Source of the DNA: Bacillota bacterium
GTDB lineage: Bacteria; Bacillota; Desulfitobacteriia; Desulfitobacteriales; JAJXUE01
Assembly (NCBI GenBank): GCA_021783135.1
Contig: JAJXUE010000001.1
Coordinates: 111,055 to 175,054 of the forward strand
Length of the DNA stretch: 64,000 bases
Direction of reading: 5' to 3'
Position 1 is the first letter of the stretch. Each line of letters opens with the position of its first letter. Below, in pieces: positions 3,669-19,466 of this stretch. The translations under genes and the position numbers were made by a program. A model generated the notes under the pieces. It saw only the letters and a program-made list of their open reading frames with translations. It searched no databases and was not told the DNA's origin.

Positions 3669-4964
3669 TTGATAAGTAGGTATACCCACCCAGCAATGGG
3701 TAAAATATTTAATGAAGCAAATGAGTTTCAGAAATGGTTAGATGTAGAAATTGCCGTATGTGAAGTCTTGGCCGAAGACGGTAAAATTCCCGGCGCTGCC
3801 CTGCAGCAGGTCATTGAAGGGGCAAAAGTCGACGTAGCTAGGATCCGTGCTATTGAAGCGGAGGTTCGGCACGACTTAATAGCGTTTTTGCAGAGTTTAG
3901 CGGAACAGGTGGGTGATAGCGCGAAGTATATTCATCTCGGCTTAACGTCGTCAGATGTCAAAGATACGGCCTTAAGCTTACAGCTGGTGGAAGCTGCCCA
4001 TATTGTAGAGCAAGATTTAATTGAGCTGCTCAAAGCTGTGGCCGTTCAAGCCAAGCAGCATAAGTTGACGATAATGGTGGGTAGGACGCATGGTATACAT
4101 GCCGAACCGACCACTTTTGGGCTTAAATTGGCGCTATGGTACGCTGAATTGGAACGTCACTTGGAGCGACTGCGTCAGGCAACGGTAAGCATTCGCGTGG
4201 GGAAAATTTCCGGTGCCGTAGGTACTTTTGCGAATATCGAGCCCCAAGTAGAAGCAAGGGTGTGTGCCCGATTAGGCTTGGATGCGGCTAAGGTAAGCAG
4301 TCAAATTTTACAACGCGACAGACATGCGCATTTTGTCAGCACCTTGGCTTTAATTGGGTCATCTTTAGATAAATTTGCCACAGAAGTACGCAATTTGCAG
4401 CGTACAGATATTTTGGAGCTGGAAGAAGCCTTTGCTAAGGGGCAGAAGGGATCCTCGGCAATGCCCCATAAGCGCAACCCGATAACTTGTGAACAGATTG
4501 CTGGTTTAGCACGGGTTTTAAGAGGGAACAGTTTAGCCGCCATGGAAAATGTAGCGCTTTGGCACGAACGGGACATGACTCATTCTTCGGTGGAGCGGAT
4601 TATACTGCCTGATAGCTGTATTCTGCTAGATCACATGTTACGCAAGTTTACCGGTGTTGTGGAAAATCTTCAAGTCTACCCTGCCAATATGGAGAAAAAT
4701 CTCCGTCGAACTTACGGCATAACTAATTCCCAAAGAGTTTTGTTGGCACTGGTCGAAAAGGGGATGAGCCGACAAGACGCGTACGGCATAGTACAAAAGA
4801 ACGCATTTGCCGCATGGGAGCAAGGATCGGATTTTTGCGAAGTTATCAAACAAGATCCCCAAGTTGCGATGCTATTAACCAGAGAAGAAGTAGATAATTT
4901 ATTTGATTACGAGTATCATTTAAAGCATGTAGAAGATGTTTTTGCCCGTTTAGGGTTAACCTAA
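3669..4964 (+). CDS. purB: Adenylosuccinate lyase
   Basis: The N-terminus MISRYTHPAM matches PurB N-termini. It has the fumarate-lyase signature GSSAMPHKRNP. GAAGGAGG SD lies upstream of the TTG start. Confidence 0.95.
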   Translation: MISRYTHPAMGKIFNEANEFQKWLDVEIAVCEVLAEDGKIPGAALQQVIEGAKVDVARIRAIEAEVRHDLIAFLQSLAEQVGDSAKYIHLGLTSSDVKDTALSLQLVEAAHIVEQDLIELLKAVAVQAKQHKLTIMVGRTHGIHAEPTTFGLKLALWYAELERHLERLRQATVSIRVGKISGAVGTFANIEPQVEARVCARLGLDAAKVSSQILQRDRHAHFVSTLALIGSSLDKFATEVRNLQRTDILELEEAFAKGQKGSSAMPHKRNPITCEQIAGLARVLRGNSLAAMENVALWHERDMTHSSVERIILPDSCILLDHMLRKFTGVVENLQVYPANMEKNLRRTYGITNSQRVLLALVEKGMSRQDAYGIVQKNAFAAWEQGSDFCEVIKQDPQVAMLLTREEVDNLFDYEYHLKHVEDVFARLGLT

Positions 4965-8675: not shown

Positions 8676-8704
8676 TTGACATTATATTTAATATATCGTA
8701 AAAT
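8676..8704 (+). promoter_or_regulatory. Sigma-A-like promoter of the tRNA cluster
   Basis: TTGACA, 17 nt spacer, TAAAAT, located 25 nt upstream of tRNA-Lys. Confidence 0.65.
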
Positions 8705-8728: not shown

Positions 8729-8804
8729 GAGCCATTAGCTCAGTTGGTAGAGCACCTGACTTTTAATCAGGGTGTCGTTGGTTCGAGTCCAACATGGCTC
8801 ACCA
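8729..8804 (+). tRNA. tRNA-Lys (UUU)
   Basis: Acceptor GAGCCAT/ATGGCTC, anticodon loop CTTTTAA, T-arm GTTGG-TTCGAGT-CCAAC, encoded CCA. Confidence 0.92.
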
Positions 8805-8808
8805 TTAC

Positions 8809-8884
8809 GGCCCATTGGTCAAGCGGTCTAAGACACCGCCCTTTCACGGCGGTTACACGGGTTCGAATCCCGTATGGGTCACCA
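8809..8884 (+). tRNA. tRNA-Glu (UUC)
   Basis: Acceptor GGCCCAT/ATGGGTC, anticodon stem CCGCC/GGCGG with loop CTTTCAC, T-loop TTCGAAT, encoded CCA. Confidence 0.9.
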
Positions 8885-8892
8885 TTATTCCT

Positions 8893-8968
<76 letters not shown>

Positions 8969-9810: not shown

Positions 9811-9839
9811 TTGACTAAAGCCACCCAAAACGGTATAAT
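9811..9839 (+). promoter_or_regulatory. Sigma-A-like promoter of the solitary tRNA-Gly
   Basis: TTGACT, 17 nt spacer, TATAAT. Confidence 0.65.
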
Positions 9840-9896: not shown

Positions 9897-9971
9897 GCGG
9901 AAGTGGCTCAGTGGTAGAGCATTGGCTTCCCAAGCCGAGGGTCGCGGGTTCGAATCCCGTCTTCCGCTCCA
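9897..9971 (+). tRNA. tRNA-Gly (CCC)
   Basis: Acceptor GCGGAAG/CTTCCGC, anticodon loop TTCCCAA, T-arm GCGGG-TTCGAAT-CCCGT, encoded CCA. Confidence 0.9.
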
Positions 9972-10111: not shown

Positions 10112-10138
10112 TTGCCTAAATTGCCTATATTGCCTAAT
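10112..10138 (+). repeat. Three tandem 9-bp units TTGCCTA-AA / -TA / -AT
   Basis: Read directly. A fourth copy (TTGCCTATA) lies at 9999-10007. The array overlaps the nominal start of the HTH ORF. Confidence 0.9.
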
Positions 10139-10720
10139 TTGATTAAGGAAGGAATTGAAACTTTAAAAGAAATGATAGTCAACAGCGAGGGACAACTAAT
10201 CAACGGCCAAACCAACACAACCAATGAAACCAACACAACCAATGAAACCAACACAACCAATGAAACCAACACAACCAACACAACCAACACAACCAACACA
10301 ACCAACACAACCAACACAACCAACACAACCAACACAACCAACGCAACCAACGCAACCAACGCAACCAACGCAACCAATGAAACCAATGAAACCAATGAAA
10401 CCAATGAAACCAATGAACCTTCGTTAGCAGTGGGGAATGCTGTCTCATCTGAGAATTTTCCGGCGAGAAAATTTCAGGTTAACCTAAAAGGAGTCACCAA
10501 ATTTAGGCCTCCGGATCGAGTGCTGAACCGAATATTATACGGGCTGATGTTAGTTGAAGACATTAAAACCATTGAAATGGCGCGTTTATTGGGTGTTAGC
10601 CAACGGGCAGTTGAACGTTGGATTTCGGAAGGAATTGTACCGAAGCAACCCAGACAAGATATGTTATCCACCATCTTGAAGTGTCCTCCACACATATTAT
10701 TTAGTGAAGTTGATAAATAA
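10112..10720 (+). CDS. Hypothetical DNA-binding protein: N-terminal (Thr-Asn-X)23 low-complexity tract plus C-terminal helix-turn-helix
   Basis: The ORF is open from TTG 10112 but has no convincing SD, so the start is uncertain. The HTH is [24 protein letters not shown]. The true product could instead be only the C-terminal ~60-90 aa. Confidence 0.45.
10211..10417 (+). repeat. 23 x 9-bp perfect tandem array in blocks: (ACCAACACA-ACCAATGAA)x3, ACCAACACA x8, ACCAACGCA x4, ACCAATGAA x5
   Basis: Counted unit by unit from the sequence. There are three unit variants differing at 1-3 positions and no degenerate copies. Confidence 0.95.
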
Positions 10721-11561: not shown

Positions 11562-11590
11562 TTTACCCACTCTCAGTCATATGGTATAAT
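11562..11590 (+). promoter_or_regulatory. Promoter of the SCIFF precursor gene
   Basis: TTTACC, 17 nt spacer, extended -10 TGgTATAAT. Confidence 0.6.
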
Positions 11591-11621
11591 TTAGTCAGAA
11601 TTTTGCGTAGGAGGGTTTCCT

Positions 11622-11762
11622 TTGACAAAACATATTGTGACGATTACCAAGGCCAATCTTAAAGATACTTTGAAAACAGGCGGTTGCGGTGAATGCCAGA
11701 CTTCTTGCCAATCTGCCTGCAAAACGTCTTGCACGGTCGGTAATCAAGTTTGTGTTAAATAG
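11622..11762 (+). CDS. SCIFF (six cysteines in forty-five residues) ranthipeptide precursor, 46 aa
   Basis: It is absent from the ORF track. TTG start lies 6 nt after AGGAGGG. Translation is MTKHIVTITKANLKDTLKTGGCGECQTSCQSACKTSCTVGNQVCVK. The GGCGECQTSCQSACKTSCTVGNQ core is the family signature. Confidence 0.9.
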   Translation: MTKHIVTITKANLKDTLKTGGCGECQTSCQSACKTSCTVGNQVCVK

Positions 11763-11796
11763 GTCTAAGTTTTAGTCGCGTCAATCGAACAATAAG

Positions 11797-11822
11797 CCCA
11801 GCCCACAATTGGGCTGGGTTTT
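11797..11822 (+). terminator. Intrinsic terminator/attenuator between the SCIFF precursor and its maturase
   Basis: Stem CCCAGCCC, loop acaatt, stem GGGCTGGG, followed by TTTT. Confidence 0.7.
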
Positions 11823-11850
11823 AACTTTTATCTCGAGGAGGAAATTTTCT

Positions 11851-13269
11851 TTGGATTTGATCAACTACAACTTTGCGAGTAATCTGCACTGCTTTGAACA
11901 AGGCGGGATGAAGATTGTTTTAGACGTTAACAGCGGTTCGCTGCATTCTCTAGATGGGTGTGCTTGGGAAGTAATACAGCAACTGATTGCGTATAAGGGT
12001 TGTTGGGAGGAGGTTCAGGCCGACCTTGCGGCTAGATATTCTGCCGTGGAGTTAGCGGAAGTACTGGCTGAACTAACTCAGTTGGCGCAAGAAGGCAGTC
12101 TCTTTACGACTGATGTTACATATGTCAGGCCCGAGTTCCCCCGCGAGCCAGTGGTTAAAGCGATTTGCTTACATGTAGCGCATGACTGTAATTTAAGGTG
12201 TGAGTATTGTTTTGCCGGGACGGGTGATTTCGGTGGCGACCGTTCCCTTATGAGCCTAGAGGTGGGTAAACAAGCAATCCGGTTTGTTCTGGAGAAGTCG
12301 CGGCAGCGTAATCACTGTGAGGTAGATTTCTTTGGCGGGGAACCGCTGGTAAACCTTTCGGTGGTAAGGGAGCTTGTCGCTTATGGCCAAGTTGAGGCTG
12401 CCAAGCTAGGAAAAACAATCAAATTTACCCTCACTACCAATGCCGTACTTCTAAACCAGCAGGTGCGGGAGTTCCTGGCAACGAATGATATAAGTGTAGT
12501 GATGAGCCTTGACGGCAGACCTGAGGTCAACGATAAAATGCGTCCCTATGCCGACGGTTCTGGGAGCTATGCTACAATAGTTAAAAATATTCAGGCCTTT
12601 GCGGCTGAAAACAAGAATTCATCACAGTATGCGGTCGGCACTTACTATTATGTGCGAGGGACGTATACACATCATAATCTGGACTTTGATCTTGACGTCT
12701 TACATATGGCGGACTTGGGAATTAAGCAAATTTCTGTTGAACCAGTCGTGGCGTCGCCGCAAGATCAATATGCTTTTCGACCGGAAGATCTGCCTGTATT
12801 AATGCAAAGTTACGAGCGTTTAGCTGATGCATATCTGGAGCGGCAGGATAATTCAGACGGATTCGACTTTTTCCATTTTAATTTGGAACTCGGTAAAGGC
12901 CCTTGCCTTCCTAAACGTCTTTCGGGTTGTGGCGCCGGGCACGAATATTTGGCTGTAGCGCCGGATGGATCCCTTTTTCCTTGCCACCAGTTTGTCGGTA
13001 ACCCGGAATTTAAGGTGGGCGACGTTTTTAGTGGCGAGATTGATCTTGAAATGGCGGCTCGCTTCCGCGATGCGCACGTTTATAATAAACCGGAGTGCCG
13101 CAAATGCTGGGCTAGGTTTTTCTGCAGCGGAGGGTGCCATGCAGCGGCGTTTAATTTTAACGGTGACCTGCACCAACCGTATGAATTGGGCTGTAAATTG
13201 CAACGTAAGCGCTTAGAGAGCGCAATGTACATTAAGGCCAAGCAAGCATTAAGTCAAGCAATTAGTTAG
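11851..13269 (+). CDS. SCIFF radical-SAM/SPASM peptide maturase (thioether-forming)
   Basis: CNLRCEYCF radical-SAM cluster motif and HCFEQGGMKIVLDVNSGSLH N-terminus as in CteB/Tte1186-type enzymes. The C-terminal Cys-rich SPASM region is CGAG...FPCHQF...CRKCWARFFCSGGCHA. TTG 11851 lies 9 nt after GGAGGA. The track start 11809 lies inside the terminator hairpin. Confidence 0.88.
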   Translation: MDLINYNFASNLHCFEQGGMKIVLDVNSGSLHSLDGCAWEVIQQLIAYKGCWEEVQADLAARYSAVELAEVLAELTQLAQEGSLFTTDVTYVRPEFPREPVVKAICLHVAHDCNLRCEYCFAGTGDFGGDRSLMSLEVGKQAIRFVLEKSRQRNHCEVDFFGGEPLVNLSVVRELVAYGQVEAAKLGKTIKFTLTTNAVLLNQQVREFLATNDISVVMSLDGRPEVNDKMRPYADGSGSYATIVKNIQAFAAENKNSSQYAVGTYYYVRGTYTHHNLDFDLDVLHMADLGIKQISVEPVVASPQDQYAFRPEDLPVLMQSYERLADAYLERQDNSDGFDFFHFNLELGKGPCLPKRLSGCGAGHEYLAVAPDGSLFPCHQFVGNPEFKVGDVFSGEIDLEMAARFRDAHVYNKPECRKCWARFFCSGGCHAAAFNFNGDLHQPYELGCKLQRKRLESAMYIKAKQALSQAIS

Positions 13270-13284
13270 GAAGGATTTGATTGA

Positions 13285-15273
13285 GTGACTGAGCGCCGTA
13301 CAGTATGTCCTTTGAACTGTTTTGATTCCTGCAGTTTAATTGCCAGGGTGGACGCGGGCAAGCTTACCGCGGTCGGCGGTGACCCGGAACATCCTGTAAC
13401 CCAGGGTTTTATTTGTCCTAAGGGCAAGGCTTTGGCAGAAAGAGTCTATAGCCCGGATAGAGTTACCTTCCCATTATTTAAAAGTAAGGGGACATGGCAA
13501 CGCATTACTTGGCAGGATGCTTATGCCATCTGGGCGGAAAAGCTTGTCAAGGCTAGGGAGCAATACGGTTCTCTTTCAGTCCTGCATCACTTTGACTATG
13601 GTTCCAACGGACTGTTGCGCAGTCTTGATCGCCGCTTCTTTAATGTCTTTGGCGGGGTCACAGTTCCCACCGGCAGTTTGTGTTGGGGCAGCGGCATCGC
13701 AGCTCAATTGTATGATTTTGGCGGATATTACAGCCATAGTTGGAGAGACTTGTCTAACTCCCGTACAATTATTTTGTGGGGACGAGATCCGATTGTTACC
13801 AACTTGCATATGCTACCATTTTTACGCAAGGCTAAAGAGCAGGCGGCCCAGATTTATGTAATTAACCCAACTAAGGTCAAGTCGGTAGACTTGGCTGACC
13901 ACTATATAAGTGTTCGACCGGGTACGGACGGGGCTTTGGCATTAGGCTTAGCCTATATTATTTTAGAGGAACGTTTATTAGATTTAGGTTTTGTCCAAAA
14001 CTATGTACAGGGTTTTGCTGAATATGCTGCAATGGTGAAAGAGTTCCCCCCGGAAAAGGTAAGTGAAATCACGGGTGTACCCCTCCAAGTTATGCAGGAA
14101 TTGGCGCGGACCGTTGCCAGACAAAAGCCTACAGCAGTTATCTTTGGCTATGGCCCGCAACGCTATACGAACGGAGGGCAAACGATCCGAGCCATAAATG
14201 CGCTAATGGCTATTACAGGCAATATTGGCATATCCGGCGGGGGAGCAAATTATGCGCACCAATATAATCAAGGTTTGTTTAAAGACCTGACCCTACCTGA
14301 GTTAGCTCGGCATAAGCGGGAAATACCATTTGCGTCGCTTGGAAGACAGATACCGCAACTCGATCCGCCGCTTAAGGTTGCGGTTGTAACCAGGTCGAAC
14401 CCTGTATGTCAGCATCCTGATACTGCAGTTTTCAGCCGCTCATTTCAGAGTATTGACTTTAAGGTCACCATTGATTTTCACCTCAACGATACGGCGGCTG
14501 TCTCAGATTTGTTTTTACCTTGTACAACTATTTTTGAGGAAGAGGATTTGATTGCGACTTCATGGAGCGAATATCTTGGTTATGCTCCTAAATTGATAGA
14601 ACCTGTGGGCGAGTCCAAACCAGACCCGCTAATTTTCAGTGAGTTGGCCCAAGTGTTGGGAATGGGAGACTACTTTACGAAGACGAGCGCAGAATGGCTC
14701 GATGAAGCACTCGAACCGGCGGAAAAAAAGTTTGGTTTGACACTCGCTAGCTTGCGTGAAGGCTGGATCAGAAACCCGCAATTTAAAGATGTGGCTTGGC
14801 AAGAGCGTAGTTTTAACACTCCTTCCGGCAAAGTTGAATTGTTTTCGCAGCAGGCATTGGAGCAAGTCGGCGAGGGAACAGCACGCTTTGTCCCGGCGCT
14901 GGAGAGTGGTTCACAGGAGCTTGCGGGGTACCCGCTTTATTTTCTCACACCGCACCCATCCAACGCCTTGCACTCGCAATTTAATGCGGACGCGGATAAT
15001 TACCCATATTTAGATATTAACCCGGAGACGGCTGAGAGCTATTACCTGCGTGATAACGATTTGGTGGTAGTGGAATCACTGCGTGGGCAACTGCTTTGTC
15101 GAGCCAGACATAGTGGGCGTCAACGAGCTGATACCGTTCAGGTAACTGAAGGAAAATGGCTTAAATTCGGTGGCGGAGTTAATTTCCTTACCCCAGGATT
15201 TCGCACAGATATGGGTGATGGTGTTCCCTACTACGATTGTCGCTGCCAATTGCGCAAATATTTTCCCGGGTAA
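13285..15273 (+). CDS. Cytoplasmic molybdopterin (bis-MGD) oxidoreductase, DmsA-like catalytic subunit without partner subunits
   Basis: N-terminal C8-x3-C12-x3-C16-x27-C44 FeS motif. GYGPQRYTNGGQTIRAINALMAITGNIGISGGG matches the DMSO-reductase-family core. A C-terminal MopB_CT-like barrel is present. There is no Tat signal. Confidence 0.8.
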   Translation: MTERRTVCPLNCFDSCSLIARVDAGKLTAVGGDPEHPVTQGFICPKGKALAERVYSPDRVTFPLFKSKGTWQRITWQDAYAIWAEKLVKAREQYGSLSVLHHFDYGSNGLLRSLDRRFFNVFGGVTVPTGSLCWGSGIAAQLYDFGGYYSHSWRDLSNSRTIILWGRDPIVTNLHMLPFLRKAKEQAAQIYVINPTKVKSVDLADHYISVRPGTDGALALGLAYIILEERLLDLGFVQNYVQGFAEYAAMVKEFPPEKVSEITGVPLQVMQELARTVARQKPTAVIFGYGPQRYTNGGQTIRAINALMAITGNIGISGGGANYAHQYNQGLFKDLTLPELARHKREIPFASLGRQIPQLDPPLKVAVVTRSNPVCQHPDTAVFSRSFQSIDFKVTIDFHLNDTAAVSDLFLPCTTIFEEEDLIATSWSEYLGYAPKLIEPVGESKPDPLIFSELAQVLGMGDYFTKTSAEWLDEALEPAEKKFGLTLASLREGWIRNPQFKDVAWQERSFNTPSGKVELFSQQALEQVGEGTARFVPALESGSQELAGYPLYFLTPHPSNALHSQFNADADNYPYLDINPETAESYYLRDNDLVVVESLRGQLLCRARHSGRQRADTVQVTEGKWLKFGGGVNFLTPGFRTDMGDGVPYYDCRCQLRKYFPG

Positions 15274-15286
15274 GGGGGTAAGCATT

Positions 15287-16156
15287 TTGAGGCAAAAAAT
15301 ACTGGGGTTGAGCCTTTTTTTCTTGGTCGTCGCCATTCTTTCCGGTGCATTTTTCTATGGATATTATTACGGTAAACCGGGCAATGTTCAGGATCAAACT
15401 GTCGGTTCAGCTACTGATCCTCTGAATGTAATTAAAAATCTTGAGAAACAAGCGCAGGGTAACCCGAATAACCTCAGCATCACAGAGACCTTGGGTGATG
15501 ACTATTTTGATTTAGCCAGTAGTCTGAGAAATAACGGTGATACGCAGCAGTCGCAGCTGTATTTTGCCAAAGCTGCTGCAACCTACAGTAAGGTCATGGC
15601 TTCAGAACCTACCCGAGTAGATGTGCAAACTGACATGGCCACTGCTCTATATTACAGTAATCAGCCGGATCAGGCTGAAGCAGCTTACAAAAAGGCAATT
15701 CAGATTAATCCTAACTATTTAAATGCAAGGTTAAATTATGGCATCTTTTTGCTTTATGTACGGGGAGATACGACCGGCGCCAGAAAAGAGTTGTTTAAGG
15801 CGATGTCCCTGCAGCCTTCTAGCGATACTTTGACTAAAATAAGGTCAATTTTGGCCCAAACCGATGCAACCACTGTTTCCCCCAGTACCAGTGGTACTCC
15901 GGATTGGAGTAAGGATATTGAGCCTGTAATATTTCAGGCGTGTGCTGCCCAGTGTCATGGTCCGGGTGGAACAATGGCCCAGGCGCCATTGCAAGACTAT
16001 AATGCAGTAATGAAGTTTGTAACCCCCGGCGATATTAATAGTCCATTACTGCAGAGAATTAAAGACGGGCACGGTGTGAAGCTTGATGCGGCAACAATTG
16101 AGTTAATCCAGCGATGGGTTGCAGGCGGAGCTCCGGGACCCAAGTCAGGTTCCTAG
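15287..16156 (+). CDS. Membrane-anchored TPR-repeat protein with a C-terminal mono-haem cytochrome c domain
   Basis: TTG 15287 lies 8 nt after AAGGGGG. The N-terminal anchor is LGLSLFFLVVAILSGAFFYGYYY. A TPR-like AEAAYKKAIQINPNYLNARLNYG repeat is present, along with a CAAQCHG haem-binding site. The ...IQRWVAGGAPGP tail resembles the Planctomycete-type cytochrome c (PSCyt1) domain. Confidence 0.65.
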   Translation: MRQKILGLSLFFLVVAILSGAFFYGYYYGKPGNVQDQTVGSATDPLNVIKNLEKQAQGNPNNLSITETLGDDYFDLASSLRNNGDTQQSQLYFAKAAATYSKVMASEPTRVDVQTDMATALYYSNQPDQAEAAYKKAIQINPNYLNARLNYGIFLLYVRGDTTGARKELFKAMSLQPSSDTLTKIRSILAQTDATTVSPSTSGTPDWSKDIEPVIFQACAAQCHGPGGTMAQAPLQDYNAVMKFVTPGDINSPLLQRIKDGHGVKLDAATIELIQRWVAGGAPGPKSGS

Positions 16157-16171
16157 ACATTTTGGTCAATT

Positions 16172-16199
16172 TTGTGATTTGTCAAACATTTGTTATAAT
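16172..16199 (+). promoter_or_regulatory. Sigma-A-like promoter upstream of yycJ-like gene
   Basis: TTGTGA, 16 nt spacer, extended -10 TGtTATAAT. Confidence 0.55.
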
Positions 16200-16232: not shown

Positions 16233-17018
16233 ATGAAACTGGCTACACTAGCAAGCGGCAGTTCAGGTAACTCATCCGTTGTAACCGGCGGACAAACCTC
16301 ACTGTTAATCGATGCAGGGCTTAGCGGCAAGGGAATTAGTACTAGACTGGAGTCCCTTGGAGTGGATGTAAAGAAATTAGCAGGAATTTTGGTTACGCAC
16401 GAACATCAGGATCACATCCAAGGCGTGGGAGTTCTGGCTCGTAGGCATAAATTACCGGTTTATGCGCTGGAACCATGTTTCGCCGCAATGGAAGTTGGAG
16501 TGTTGCCGGATGGTTGTTGTCATGTTTTAGAGCAAGGCGAGGCTTTGGAAATTGGCGAGTTAAAAGTTGAGCTTTTTAATACCTCGCACGACAGCATGGC
16601 GAGTACTGGTTTTGTTTGTTTTCATGCCGAGAGTAAAATCGGATATGCTACAGACACTGGTGAAGTGTCACCTATAATGATTCGTAAATTGCGCGGCAGT
16701 AACGCCATGATTTTCGAGTCCAACCACGATGAAGAAATGCTATGGCGTGGCAGGTATCCTTATCACTTAAAGCAAAGGATTGCTGCTTCAACAGGACATC
16801 TATCTAACACCGATGCCGGTAAGGCTCTTGCTGAAATAATTGACCACAAGACCAAACGTATTATATTGGCCCATTTAAGCGAGGAAAATAACTTGCCGGA
16901 TATTGCCCTACACACAGTGGGTAATATATTACACGAAGCGGGAGTGCCTGCTTTAGCACCGGAATTGAAAATTCGGACTGCGCCCCGCCATATGCCATTG
17001 GGGGTTGAGGACGTCTAA
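16233..17018 (+). CDS. yycJ: Metallo-beta-lactamase-fold hydrolase, YycJ/WalJ-like
   Basis: ATG 16233 follows AGGAGAAAAG. It has the THEHQDH motif. The yycJ-htrA-rlmH order matches Bacillus. Confidence 0.75.
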   Translation: MKLATLASGSSGNSSVVTGGQTSLLIDAGLSGKGISTRLESLGVDVKKLAGILVTHEHQDHIQGVGVLARRHKLPVYALEPCFAAMEVGVLPDGCCHVLEQGEALEIGELKVELFNTSHDSMASTGFVCFHAESKIGYATDTGEVSPIMIRKLRGSNAMIFESNHDEEMLWRGRYPYHLKQRIAASTGHLSNTDAGKALAEIIDHKTKRIILAHLSEENNLPDIALHTVGNILHEAGVPALAPELKIRTAPRHMPLGVEDV

Positions 17019-17038
17019 CAAGTAGCTGAAGGAGAGTA

Positions 17039-18184
17039 GTGGTAATGGATTATTTCGATGAATCGTATCGTAAACGACCTAAGTATTTTCCGTACATAGT
17101 AATTGCGCTTGTTAGTGCCATTTTTGGGAGCATGTTTTCCTTGGCCATAGCGTCAAAGGTATTTAATCCCCAAACGCAGAACTCACCGGCCGGGCAAAAT
17201 TTGACCGCGACGCTGCCTCAACCTAGCCGCGGGGGGGAACCAAGCAGTTATCAAGTTGTAAATATAGCTAAAGAAATAGGCCCAGCGATAGTTGGCATAG
17301 CAAATTTTCAACCGGCTGACGCTTATGGCGGCTCTGATTTGCAGGAAATAGGCAGTGGTTCAGGGATTATAATCGATGCAGTGAAGGGCTACATTTTAAC
17401 CAACAATCACGTGGTAACCGGGGCTAAAAAATTAGTGGTTTCACTGGCAGACGGGCGCAATTTAGATGCTAAGATGATTGGAGCAGATGCTAGGACTGAT
17501 TTAGCGATCCTGCAAATAAGTGATACCAAAAGGCTGACAGCAGCGGCTATTGGTGACTCGAATGCCCTGCAAGTTGGAGAACCTGTTGTGGCTATTGGCA
17601 ATCCGGGGGGGCAGGAATTTGCCAGATCTGTTACTGTAGGGGTGGTTAGCGCCTTGAACCGGGTATTACAGTTGTCAGGTGAGTCTAGTTTTAATTTGAT
17701 TCAGACCGATGCTGCCATCAATCCGGGTAACAGTGGAGGAGCGTTAGTTAACTGGCAAGGTCAGGTAATCGGGATTAATTCGGCTAAGAATCAGGAACCG
17801 GGTTTTGAAGGTATGGGTTTTGCTATTCCGATTTCCGATGCTTGGCCTGTTGTTAAACAGCTTATCGCAACCGGACATGCCAGTCATGCAGGTTTGCTGG
17901 TGACAATTGACAATCGTTATAATGAGGAGTATGCCCAGGCCAAGGGATGGCCCGCGGGAGCACTCGTGCAAGATGTCTCGCCAAATGGGCCGGCCGATAA
18001 GGCCGGGGTGCAATCGGGAGACATTATTACTGCTGTAAATGGCAAGGCTGTAGCAAACTACTATGACCTGACACACGAGCTCTTTAAATATAAGGCCGGC
18101 GACACTATAAAACTCGTGATTTCACGCAATGGTAAGCAAATAACGACCAGTGTTGTGTTAGCCGAATTGCCTGCCGGAGAATAA
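17039..18184 (+). CDS. htrA: HtrA/DegP-family serine protease with N-terminal anchor and C-terminal PDZ domain
   Basis: Catalytic triad context TNNHVV, DLAILQ and GNSGGAL. The PDZ-like region is GDIITAVNGKAV. Confidence 0.88.
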   Translation: MVMDYFDESYRKRPKYFPYIVIALVSAIFGSMFSLAIASKVFNPQTQNSPAGQNLTATLPQPSRGGEPSSYQVVNIAKEIGPAIVGIANFQPADAYGGSDLQEIGSGSGIIIDAVKGYILTNNHVVTGAKKLVVSLADGRNLDAKMIGADARTDLAILQISDTKRLTAAAIGDSNALQVGEPVVAIGNPGGQEFARSVTVGVVSALNRVLQLSGESSFNLIQTDAAINPGNSGGALVNWQGQVIGINSAKNQEPGFEGMGFAIPISDAWPVVKQLIATGHASHAGLLVTIDNRYNEEYAQAKGWPAGALVQDVSPNGPADKAGVQSGDIITAVNGKAVANYYDLTHELFKYKAGDTIKLVISRNGKQITTSVVLAELPAGE

Positions 18185-18194
18185 GGCTGGTGAT

Positions 18195-18677
18195 TTGATG
18201 CAAATCAAAGTTGTGGCGGTAGGCAAGCTGAAGGAAAGATTTTGGCAAGCCGGAGTGGATGAGTACTTAAAGCGGTTGAAAAGTTACGCCAAGGTGGAAA
18301 TAATTGAAGTAGAAGATGAAAAATGTCCGGAGGCATATTCAGTTGCGCAGGCTTTACAAGTCAAACAACGTGAAGGGCAACGAATCATTAAGGCTGTTGG
18401 GCTTGGGAGTTTTGTCATTGCGCTGCATTTAACAGGCAAGGAATTCACCTCGGAAGGGTTCGCAGCATATCTGGATGATTTAGCTCTCAACAGTAGGAGT
18501 CATGTGACCTTTATTATCGGCGGGTCCTTGGGGCTGGCGAATGAGGTTTTAGAGCGGGCCGATTTGCATTTGGTATTTTCCCGCTTTACCCTGCCGCATC
18601 AATTGATTCGGGTTGTGTTACTTGAACAGCTTTACCGCGCTTGTAAAATTAGTCGTAATGAACCATATCATAAATGA
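18195..18677 (+). CDS. rlmH: 23S rRNA (pseudouridine1915-N3)-methyltransferase RlmH
   Basis: SPOUT fold of about 160 aa. It has KIKVVAVGKLKE at the N-terminus, FIIGGSLG, and a LPHQLIRVVLLEQLYRA tail. Confidence 0.9.
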   Translation: MMQIKVVAVGKLKERFWQAGVDEYLKRLKSYAKVEIIEVEDEKCPEAYSVAQALQVKQREGQRIIKAVGLGSFVIALHLTGKEFTSEGFAAYLDDLALNSRSHVTFIIGGSLGLANEVLERADLHLVFSRFTLPHQLIRVVLLEQLYRACKISRNEPYHK

Positions 18678-18800: not shown

Positions 18801-19466
18801 GTGATGAATCCAGCCCAAACCGTAAGCCCGCGTATTCTTATAGTTACAGCTGTCCGTGCTGAACGTGAAGCTGTGTTGCGAGGGGTACAAGCTGACCCTA
18901 GGTTTGATGTCATCATAGGCGGCGTCGGAGCTGTAGCTGCTGCAGCTAATACAACAAGGGTCTTGGTATCTGGGCGCTATGATCTAGTTGTTTGTGCCGG
19001 TATTGGAGGAGGTTTTCTGGGCCGAGCCGAACTAGGGTCGCTGGTAGTTGCCAATAGTATCGTGTGTGCCGATTTAGGCGCAGATTCCTCGGACGGGTTT
19101 TATAGCCTTGAGGAGTTGGGTTTTGGGACAACCAAAGTTGCAGTTGATGCAAGACTGGTGGATAGTGTCGCCCTTGCCTTGAGGCAGGCCGAGCTTTGCG
19201 TAAACATTGGAGTGGTTCTAACCGTATCTACGGTTACCGGCACGCCTGCGGGTGCAGCGGGGTTGGCTGCCCGAGTGCAAGACGCTACTGCTGAAGCTAT
19301 GGAGGGGTATGGCGTTGCCTATGCTGCACATACATGCGGTATTCCTGTTTTAGAGCTGCGGGCCATCTCAAATGTGGTTGGTCCACGTGACCGTTCAGCC
19401 TGGCGTATCAAAGAGGCTCTGCAAGTACTTACAACGGCCTGTGTTATATTAACGGAGGTGTTATAA
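18801..19466 (+). CDS. mqnB: Futalosine hydrolase (PNP/MTAN-fold)
   Basis: ILIVTAVRAEREAV N-terminus and ELRAISNVVG near the C-terminus. It is adjacent to and 1-nt overlapped with an mqnD-like gene. Confidence 0.7.
   Translation: MMNPAQTVSPRILIVTAVRAEREAVLRGVQADPRFDVIIGGVGAVAAAANTTRVLVSGRYDLVVCAGIGGGFLGRAELGSLVVANSIVCADLGADSSDGFYSLEELGFGTTKVAVDARLVDSVALALRQAELCVNIGVVLTVSTVTGTPAGAAGLAARVQDATAEAMEGYGVAYAAHTCGIPVLELRAISNVVGPRDRSAWRIKEALQVLTTACVILTEVL

Follow-up and report, generated by a model that had tools for sequence, protein, structure and literature searches.

The SCIFF systems of anaerobic Firmicutes pair the gene of a six-cysteine ranthipeptide precursor with that of a radical-SAM/SPASM maturase. 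CteA/CteB of Clostridium thermocellum has been structurally characterized (PDB 5WGG/5WHY), and the Tte1186a/Tte1186 pair of Caldanaerobacter subterraneus, the first SCIFF to be characterized in vitro, has been reported to yield a single Cys-Thr thioether despite the presence of six cysteines in Tte1186a (PMC8326336). A quorum-sensing-like or regulatory role has been attributed to the SCIFFs of Clostridium beijerinckii as well as C. ljungdahlii (Chen et al., 2020, cited by PMC8326336 and PMC8102284), and the wide distribution of these peptides speaks against an antibiotic role (PMC8326336). Here we analyze a SCIFF gene pair, scfA-scfB, in a stretch of 64,000 nucleotides (hereafter, the window) from contig JAJXUE010000001.1 of an uncultured Bacillota bacterium related to Desulfosporosinus. 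The best explanation of this locus, to which we assign a probability of roughly 0.85, is a standard two-gene SCIFF system in which a hairpin between the two genes would set a higher level of precursor than of enzyme mRNA. The gene pair is real, was correctly interpreted in an earlier sequence-based note on this DNA (hereafter, the original prediction), and belongs to a curated system of anaerobic Firmicutes that is already known and near-universal in clostridia.

The identity of both genes is directly established by curated family models. The product of scfA, MTKHIVTITKANLKDTLKTGGCGECQTSCQSACKTSCTVGNQVCVK, reads from the DNA exactly as it had been quoted in the original prediction, and places its cysteines at positions 22, 25, 29, 33, 37, and 44, with the spacing C-x2-C-x3-C-x3-C-x3-C-x6-C. 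It scores 85 bits against NCBIfam TIGR03973, the six-cysteine ranthipeptide SCIFF model (cut-off 50), and 87.3 bits against Pfam PF13165 (cut-off 27), which bears out both its proposed SCIFF identity and the model accessions (TIGR03973/TIGR03974) that the original prediction had named. The product of scfB scores 582.8 bits against TIGR03974, the model for thioether cross-link-forming SCIFF peptide maturases (cut-off 425), and its residues 9-465 align with CteB (E 1.5e-146); in this alignment the CxxxCxxC motif is conserved, and each of the eight C-terminal cysteines is matched to a CteB cysteine. The radical-SAM and SPASM assignments are backed by matches to Radical_SAM (PF04055; 44.3 bits), Fer4_12 (50 bits), TIGR04085 (71.7 bits, cut-off 27) and Pfam SPASM (24 bits, cut-off 21.5), in agreement with the CteB/Tte1186-type maturase that had been proposed on the grounds of its CNLRCEYCF motif and Cys-rich tail. 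Because both proteins exceed the curated cut-offs by wide margins, the match cannot be attributed to chance.

Since radical-SAM/SPASM enzymes are homologous to one another, the product of scfB could conceivably belong not with the peptide maturases but with the anaerobic sulfatase maturases, the QhpD-type enzymes or the orphan enzymes of the "not_ScfB" kind, with the small open reading frame upstream being incidental. The enzyme does score against the corresponding models, yet its 109.6 bits on TIGR03942 (anaerobic sulfatase maturase, the grouping that the original prediction had singled out for checking), 261 bits on TIGR03906 (QhpD) and 497.5 bits on NF040492 (not_ScfB) lie far under the respective cut-offs of 349.45, 453, and 855, whereas the TIGR03974 score stands 158 bits above its own. 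The scores against the PapB model (256 bits, cut-off 340) and NF010321 (70 bits, cut-off 441) are likewise insufficient. QhpD, the quinohemoprotein amine dehydrogenase maturase, is the next-best characterized homologue of ScfB and also forms thioethers between Cys and side-chain carbons (PMC8326336), but its substrate is a protein subunit instead of a free peptide precursor, and no qhp genes are present at the window locus. Furthermore, a SCIFF precursor that passes its own model lies 88 nt upstream of scfB on the same strand. A scan for relatives of the enzyme, using one genome per species, returned 80 loci (81 with the window), and a SCIFF precursor is found directly 5' of the maturase in 75 of them. 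We give this explanation practically no credence, and the family-model scores effectively refute it.

The resemblance to the characterized systems extends to the peptide. The precursor core, SCQSACKTSCTV(G/A)NQ, is near-invariant across the 75 loci, and the core seen in the window is identical to that of most homologues. As in CteA, it contains the sequence CKTSCTV, with the reported donor Cys and acceptor Thr (chemistry in PMC8326336), and ScfB shares with CteB the CxxxCxxC motif and eight SPASM cysteines. The likeness to Tte1186a/Tte1186 lies only in shared membership of TIGR03973 and TIGR03974. Unlike the CteA/CteB pair, the window genes belong to a host lineage close to Desulfosporosinus, both start with TTG, and lie in a different genomic context; moreover, the peptide ends in QVCVK, as opposed to the CEN(K) type of tail that is common in Clostridia and Lachnospiraceae. 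The N-terminal ~100 residues of CteB align with the region of ScfB that may recognize the leader peptide (Table 1). Work by Grove and colleagues in 2017 reportedly located an RRE in this part of CteB, and ScfB residues 22-81 show a weak Pfam PqqD match (E 0.0076; 17 bits, under the cut-off of 23.4). A natural variant of the precursor was observed in Vulcanibacillus modesticaldus (L035, positions 3700-4000 of the locus), where Ile takes the place of the fifth Cys (...SCQSACKTSITVGNTICYTKVENK) in a peptide encoded 5' of a TIGR03974-passing maturase; this five-Cys SCIFF could reveal which of the cysteines are dispensable.

The description of the precursor as unannotated proved mistaken for the public record. 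An exact-sequence look-up showed that the same peptide has been called as a gene, and assigned a precomputed SCIFF Pfam hit, on NCBI contig JAPTSW010000066.1 (GCA_028069455.1), where it is followed by the same 472-aa enzyme and 662-aa oxidoreductase, and the products of both scfA and scfB are present in NCBI nr. According to the curators of the family, SCIFF genes are readily missed by gene callers owing to their small size (PMC5300114).

Table 1. Features of the scfA-scfB locus (window coordinates).
Feature	Position	Strand	Basis
Sigma-70-type promoter-like site, TTTACC-17 nt-TATAAT, with TG-extended -10	11562..11590	+	Pattern scan, conservation
Ribosome-binding site of scfA, AGGAGG, 7 nt before TTG	11609..11614	+	Sequence reading; invariant in four-way alignment
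scfA, encoding the 46-aa SCIFF six-cysteine ranthipeptide precursor from a TTG start	11622..11762	+	Open reading frame list, family models, public gene call
Stem-loop AAGCCCAGCCC-ACAA-GGGCTGGGTTT and T-rich tail TTTTAACTTTTAT; probably a partial intrinsic terminator or an RNA-stabilizing 3' hairpin	11794..11831	+	
Ribosome-binding site of scfB, GAGGAGG, 9 nt before TTG 11851	11835..11841	+	Sequence reading
scfB, predicted thioether-forming SCIFF maturase (radical SAM/SPASM), 472 aa	11851..13269	+	TIGR03974, CteB alignment
Putative leader-peptide recognition (RRE/PqqD-like) region of ScfB	11884..12150	+	Aligns with N-terminal ~100 residues of CteB
Radical-SAM motif CxxxCxxC, CNLRCEYC, Cys113/Cys117/Cys120	12187..12210	+	Sequence, CteB alignment
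SPASM domain, residues 360-445, eight Cys for auxiliary [4Fe-4S] clusters	12928..13185	+	TIGR04085, Pfam SPASM

The closest relatives of the enzyme are encoded on three contigs from metagenome-assembled genomes, with 72-74% identity: L002 and L003, labeled as Bacillota bacterium, and L004, a 1.9-kb contig labeled as Candidatus Deferrimicrobium. Alignment of the window with these three loci reveals directly that the signals surrounding scfA are conserved. The TTG start of the precursor is kept in all of them, and so are the -35 core, the 17-nt spacing and the TGnTATAAT element of the upstream promoter-like site, which in the window presents 10 matches out of 12 together with the upstream TG. 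A promoter for scfA had been claimed at precisely this place, and the conserved hexamers are consistent with it. The region of the scfB ribosome-binding site, GAGGAGGAA, is kept in L002 and L003, and L004 has GGGAGGAAA in its place. Translation of scfB most likely starts at TTG 11851, because this codon lies 9 nt after GAGGAGG and the resulting 472-aa form is that of public gene calls. The first in-frame start, TTG 11809, was considered and rejected, as it falls inside the hairpin and upstream of the ribosome-binding site.

Stem-loops separating a short precursor gene from its modification genes are a familiar arrangement in peptide-maturation operons. In nisA-nisB (nisin) and sboA-albA (subtilosin), the modification genes located after the stem-loop are transcribed through limited read-through, and such operons are thought to set a high ratio of precursor to enzyme. 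Both are antimicrobial clusters equipped with transport and immunity genes, whereas the SCIFF pair has none adjacent to it. In the window, a pattern scan places the hairpin proper, a stem of 12 pairs (7 G-C) closed by a loop of 4, at 11794-11821, and this hairpin is also the centroid structure of the folded intergenic RNA (-21.5 kcal/mol). The tail that follows consists of TTTT, AAC and TTTT, with three T of the first TTTT able to pair with the 5' AA(G), and passes a loose scan calling for at least 5 T in 8. The hairpin is present in L002, L003, and L004, and its central pair differs among the loci (A:T in the window, G:C in both L002 and L003, T:A in L004); the occurrence of three different Watson-Crick pairs at this position indicates that pairing has been maintained through two-sided changes. 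The hairpin followed by TTTT that the original prediction had placed between the two genes is borne out by the sequence, with a U-tract that is interrupted.

The position of the hairpin has consequences for the expression of scfB. Only 30 nt separate it from the start of the gene, and these are taken up by the T-tract and the ribosome-binding site, leaving no room for a promoter, so scfB would be transcribed by read-through from scfA. If the hairpin were instead to terminate transcription efficiently, scfB would have to be expressed independently of scfA, from a promoter of its own. The stem's strength (-21 kcal/mol) is all that speaks for such an arrangement, which we regard as very improbable: besides the occupied 30-nt interval, the pattern scan found no promoter-like site on the + strand between 11600 and 11850, and the nearest pair of hexamers that can be discerned by eye, TTGGGC and TTTTAT, is just 11 nt apart.

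The hairpin is not peculiar to the window, but a family-wide feature of SCIFF loci. A first survey of the 75 intergenic regions, restricted to perfect stems and using dinucleotide shuffles as control, identified stems at or below -8 kcal/mol in 71% of them, against 6.8% of shuffles. This survey under-counted, and wrongly hinted that Desulfosporosinus lacked the hairpin. Folding of the Desulfosporosinus alignment revealed, at the same position, a conserved stem of 12 pairs and one mismatch, CAGAACCCA-CCC...GGG-TGGGTTCTG, which is unrelated in sequence, precedes a T-rich tail and had been overlooked by the perfect-stem finder; the survey was for this reason repeated with RNAfold on 44-nt windows. 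Local folds at or below -16 kcal/mol were then detected in 66 of the 75 loci (88%) and in 6.7% of shuffles, and folds at or below -20 kcal/mol in 44 loci (59%), against 0.5% of shuffles. Across lineages the stems cannot be aligned and correspond to about twenty unrelated sequences, the structure being kept while the sequence is replaced. A long hairpin likewise separates the two genes in the C. ljungdahlii locus (L073), which harbors the same two-gene system. These results support an attenuator or an RNA-stability element shared by the whole family, in line with other peptide-maturation operons. No published description of a hairpin between SCIFF precursor and maturase was found in the literature searched, and its family-wide conservation is the only modestly new point of this analysis.

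In the proposed mechanism, the sigma-70-type promoter would drive scfA, with transcription starting about 7 nt after position 11590, and the precursor would be translated from TTG 11622. The hairpin would then halt or protect a fraction of the transcripts, acting most likely as a partial terminator, as a protective 3' end or as both, and the remaining transcripts would read through into scfB, so that precursor mRNA would exceed enzyme mRNA. ScfB would bind the leader of the precursor via its N-terminal region, and would employ a 5'-deoxyadenosyl radical to join a core Cys to a side-chain carbon in one or more intramolecular thioethers. Going by homology with CteA/CteB and Tte1186, such a thioether may connect the fourth Cys (Cys33) to the gamma-carbon of Thr35 or Thr38, within the invariant CKTSCTV motif.

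Several observations weigh against this account. The promoter scan yields no more sites than are seen in shuffles (3 versus 3.3), which leaves position and conservation, and not the scan, as the grounds for the promoter call. The U-tract in the window is interrupted (UUUUAACUUUU), and a T-rich tail follows only 37 of 74 strong hairpins. With an interrupted tract here and a tail in about half of the homologues, termination may be inefficient, or the hairpin may lack terminator function altogether. The loci surveyed are phylogenetically related, and the counts obtained from them, such as 75 of 81, are hence not fully independent. Lastly, the acceptor of the CteA cross-link is itself disputed, with Thr37 and Thr34 both having been put forward (PMC8326336). 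The excess of precursor over maturase transcripts that the original prediction had anticipated is, in turn, something that we infer from a hairpin with a discontinuous U-tract.

The lack of a T-rich tail after half of the strong hairpins lends some weight to the main rival reading of the hairpin, as an element of RNA stability or processing instead of a terminator. A full-length scfAB transcript would in that case be cleaved, or degraded from its 3' end, and the stem would protect the scfA mRNA. The stem itself is nearly universal, whereas the tail is absent altogether from loci such as L072/L073, L062, and L037, and the broken tract of the window fits the same pattern. On the other hand, T-rich tails do occur directly 3' of the stem in the window, in the Desulfosporosinus group and in several other loci, as required of an intrinsic terminator. 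We deem a purely stabilizing hairpin unlikely, although well worth entertaining, and the two roles are not mutually exclusive: stabilization and partial termination would lead to the same outcome, an excess of precursor mRNA, through different mechanisms. Partial termination with read-through, with or without a contribution from RNA protection, remains our preferred explanation for the layout of the locus.

The transcript may extend beyond scfB. The scfB stop codon lies 16 nt from the start of the next gene, no terminator-like site of note separates scfB from position ~16150, and a good promoter-like site next occurs at 16172-16199. Given this short gap and the lack of a credible terminator after scfB, the read-through transcript probably also covers the two following genes. 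The first of these (13285-15273, + strand) encodes a molybdopterin oxidoreductase of 662 aa, which carries an Fe4S4 domain at its N-terminus, lacks a signal peptide discernible by eye and falls under every NCBIfam equivalog cut-off (the best score being 264 bits for Fdh-alpha, against 666). The second (~15287-16156, + strand, with its start at 15287 as in the public gene call in L001) encodes a TPR protein with a C-terminal CAAQCHG, a CxxCH heme-c-type motif, in what constitutes an unusual combination. Four tRNAs were the sole matches in an Rfam scan of the whole window, which identified neither a riboswitch nor a leader RNA close to the locus.

The TPR/CxxCH protein is kept downstream of scfB in 18 loci, and the oxidoreductase follows scfB in 11 of the 81. 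The oxidoreductase was considered as a conserved functional partner of scfAB and rejected, given its presence in only 11 of 81 loci, its absence from L003, with an enzyme 74% identical to that of the window, and its looser spacing in Desulfosporosinus, where it lies 80-200 nt from scfB. One may still envisage that the stem-loop is a regulated attenuator or RNA-processing site setting the precursor to maturase ratio throughout the family and that, separately, read-through couples SCIFF maturation to the abutting, presumably cytoplasmic oxidoreductase and the TPR/CxxCH protein. We hold this combined proposal to be a long shot; if true, the coupling would be a hint that the six-Cys peptide acts in redox or metal-related processes, and not in signaling.

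A role in signaling or regulation, and not in antibiosis, is probably the correct one for the SCIFF analyzed here, by analogy with its clostridial counterparts. The signaling phenotype is a finding made in C. beijerinckii and C. ljungdahlii, and not in the host of the window. The original prediction had regarded the physiological role of SCIFFs as largely unresolved; it is indeed only partly understood, but the quorum-sensing or regulatory function related for clostridial SCIFFs (PMC8326336; PMC8102284) makes that statement too strong. The claim that no protease, exporter or immunity gene is adjacent to the pair agrees both with the window, where no exporter, immunity gene or peptide-dedicated protease is linked to it, and with what is known of the family. 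After clustering every flanking open reading frame of the 81 loci and annotating representative members, no conserved exporter, protease or immunity gene was found beside the SCIFF pair.

The genes that do recur next to the SCIFF pair are the housekeeping SecDF, YajC, Tgt, QueA, RecJ, and RuvB genes, together with a small membrane protein of the TIGR04086 family. In Lachnospiraceae, Acetobacterium, Clostridium and others, whose enzymes are 46-51% identical to ScfB, the former three groups display the order ruvB-queA-tgt-yajC-(TIGR04086 membrane protein)-scfA-scfB-secDF-recJ. The TIGR04086 protein (83.8 bits, cut-off 30) is encoded just 5' of scfA in 15 loci from Lachnospiraceae and relatives, and is the sole non-housekeeping gene recurring near SCIFF (in a subset of L040-L065, ~0.8 kb upstream of scfB). 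None of these genes (ruvB, queA, tgt, yajC, the TIGR04086 gene, secDF, recJ) is found anywhere in the 64-kb window. In contrast with the clostridial arrangement, the window pair is located between the gene of a DUF4352 protein, itself accompanied upstream by tRNA genes, and a block encoding an oxidoreductase, a TPR protein, an MBL-fold hydrolase and HtrA. This downstream block, (molybdopterin oxidoreductase)-TPR protein-MBL-fold hydrolase-HtrA, is shared with Desulfosporosinus species, which carry the next-closest enzymes (53-58% identity).

Further observations concern the remaining SCIFF loci. Three gut Peptococcaceae metagenome-assembled genomes (L023, L025, and L026) encode enzymes that score 629-649 bits on TIGR03974, well under the not_ScfB cut-off, and have no SCIFF-like open reading frame either within the 450-700 nt upstream of them or in the rest of the fetched locus. 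Either their precursor is located elsewhere, or these enzymes are true orphans that escape the exception model. SCIFF loci were also observed on contigs not labeled as Firmicutes, namely, besides L004 (Candidatus Deferrimicrobium), L033 (Paludibacteraceae), L036 (Solirubrobacterales), and L049 (Thermoguttaceae). The precursor, spacing and intergenic result of L049 are those of Roseburia amylophila (L051), and these four contigs are most likely mis-binned or contaminant, and not true instances of SCIFF outside the Bacillota.

Elsewhere in the window, an MBL-fold hydrolase, an HtrA-family protease and RlmH are encoded at 16233-18677 (+ strand), followed by a futalosine hydrolase at 18801-19466. 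The order of the first three matches that of the walJ(yycJ)-htrC(yycK)-rlmH region of Bacillus, which suggests, by analogy, that the window may lie in a conserved origin-proximal block. Upstream of the SCIFF pair, a tRNA-Lys(UUU), tRNA-Glu(UUC), tRNA-Phe(GAA) cluster (8729-8968, + strand) and a separate tRNA-Gly(CCC) (9897-9971, + strand) are each preceded by a strong promoter-like site with 11 matches out of 12 (8676-8704 and 9811-9839). An open reading frame at 10112-10720 (+ strand) contains, at 10210-10413, a 9-nt tandem repeat, AACCAACRC, in ~22.7 copies with an 89% match. The encoded protein, of 202 aa, has no NCBIfam match; the repeat gives rise to a Thr/Asn/Glu-rich tract (TNE/TNT), and the C-terminus resembles a helix-turn-helix. 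The repeat may represent a contingency or length-variable locus.

For the biology of the host, the window adds one more orthologue of a gene pair that is found in nearly all Clostridia and recognized automatically by curated models, and as an entry point into the physiological role of SCIFF peptides it is no more tractable than existing model organisms. Its wider use resides in the intergenic region. A strong stem-loop, which some 90% of 75 diverse loci retain even as the underlying sequence has been replaced many times, provides a simple, testable handle on how cells hold a substrate peptide in excess over the enzyme that modifies it.

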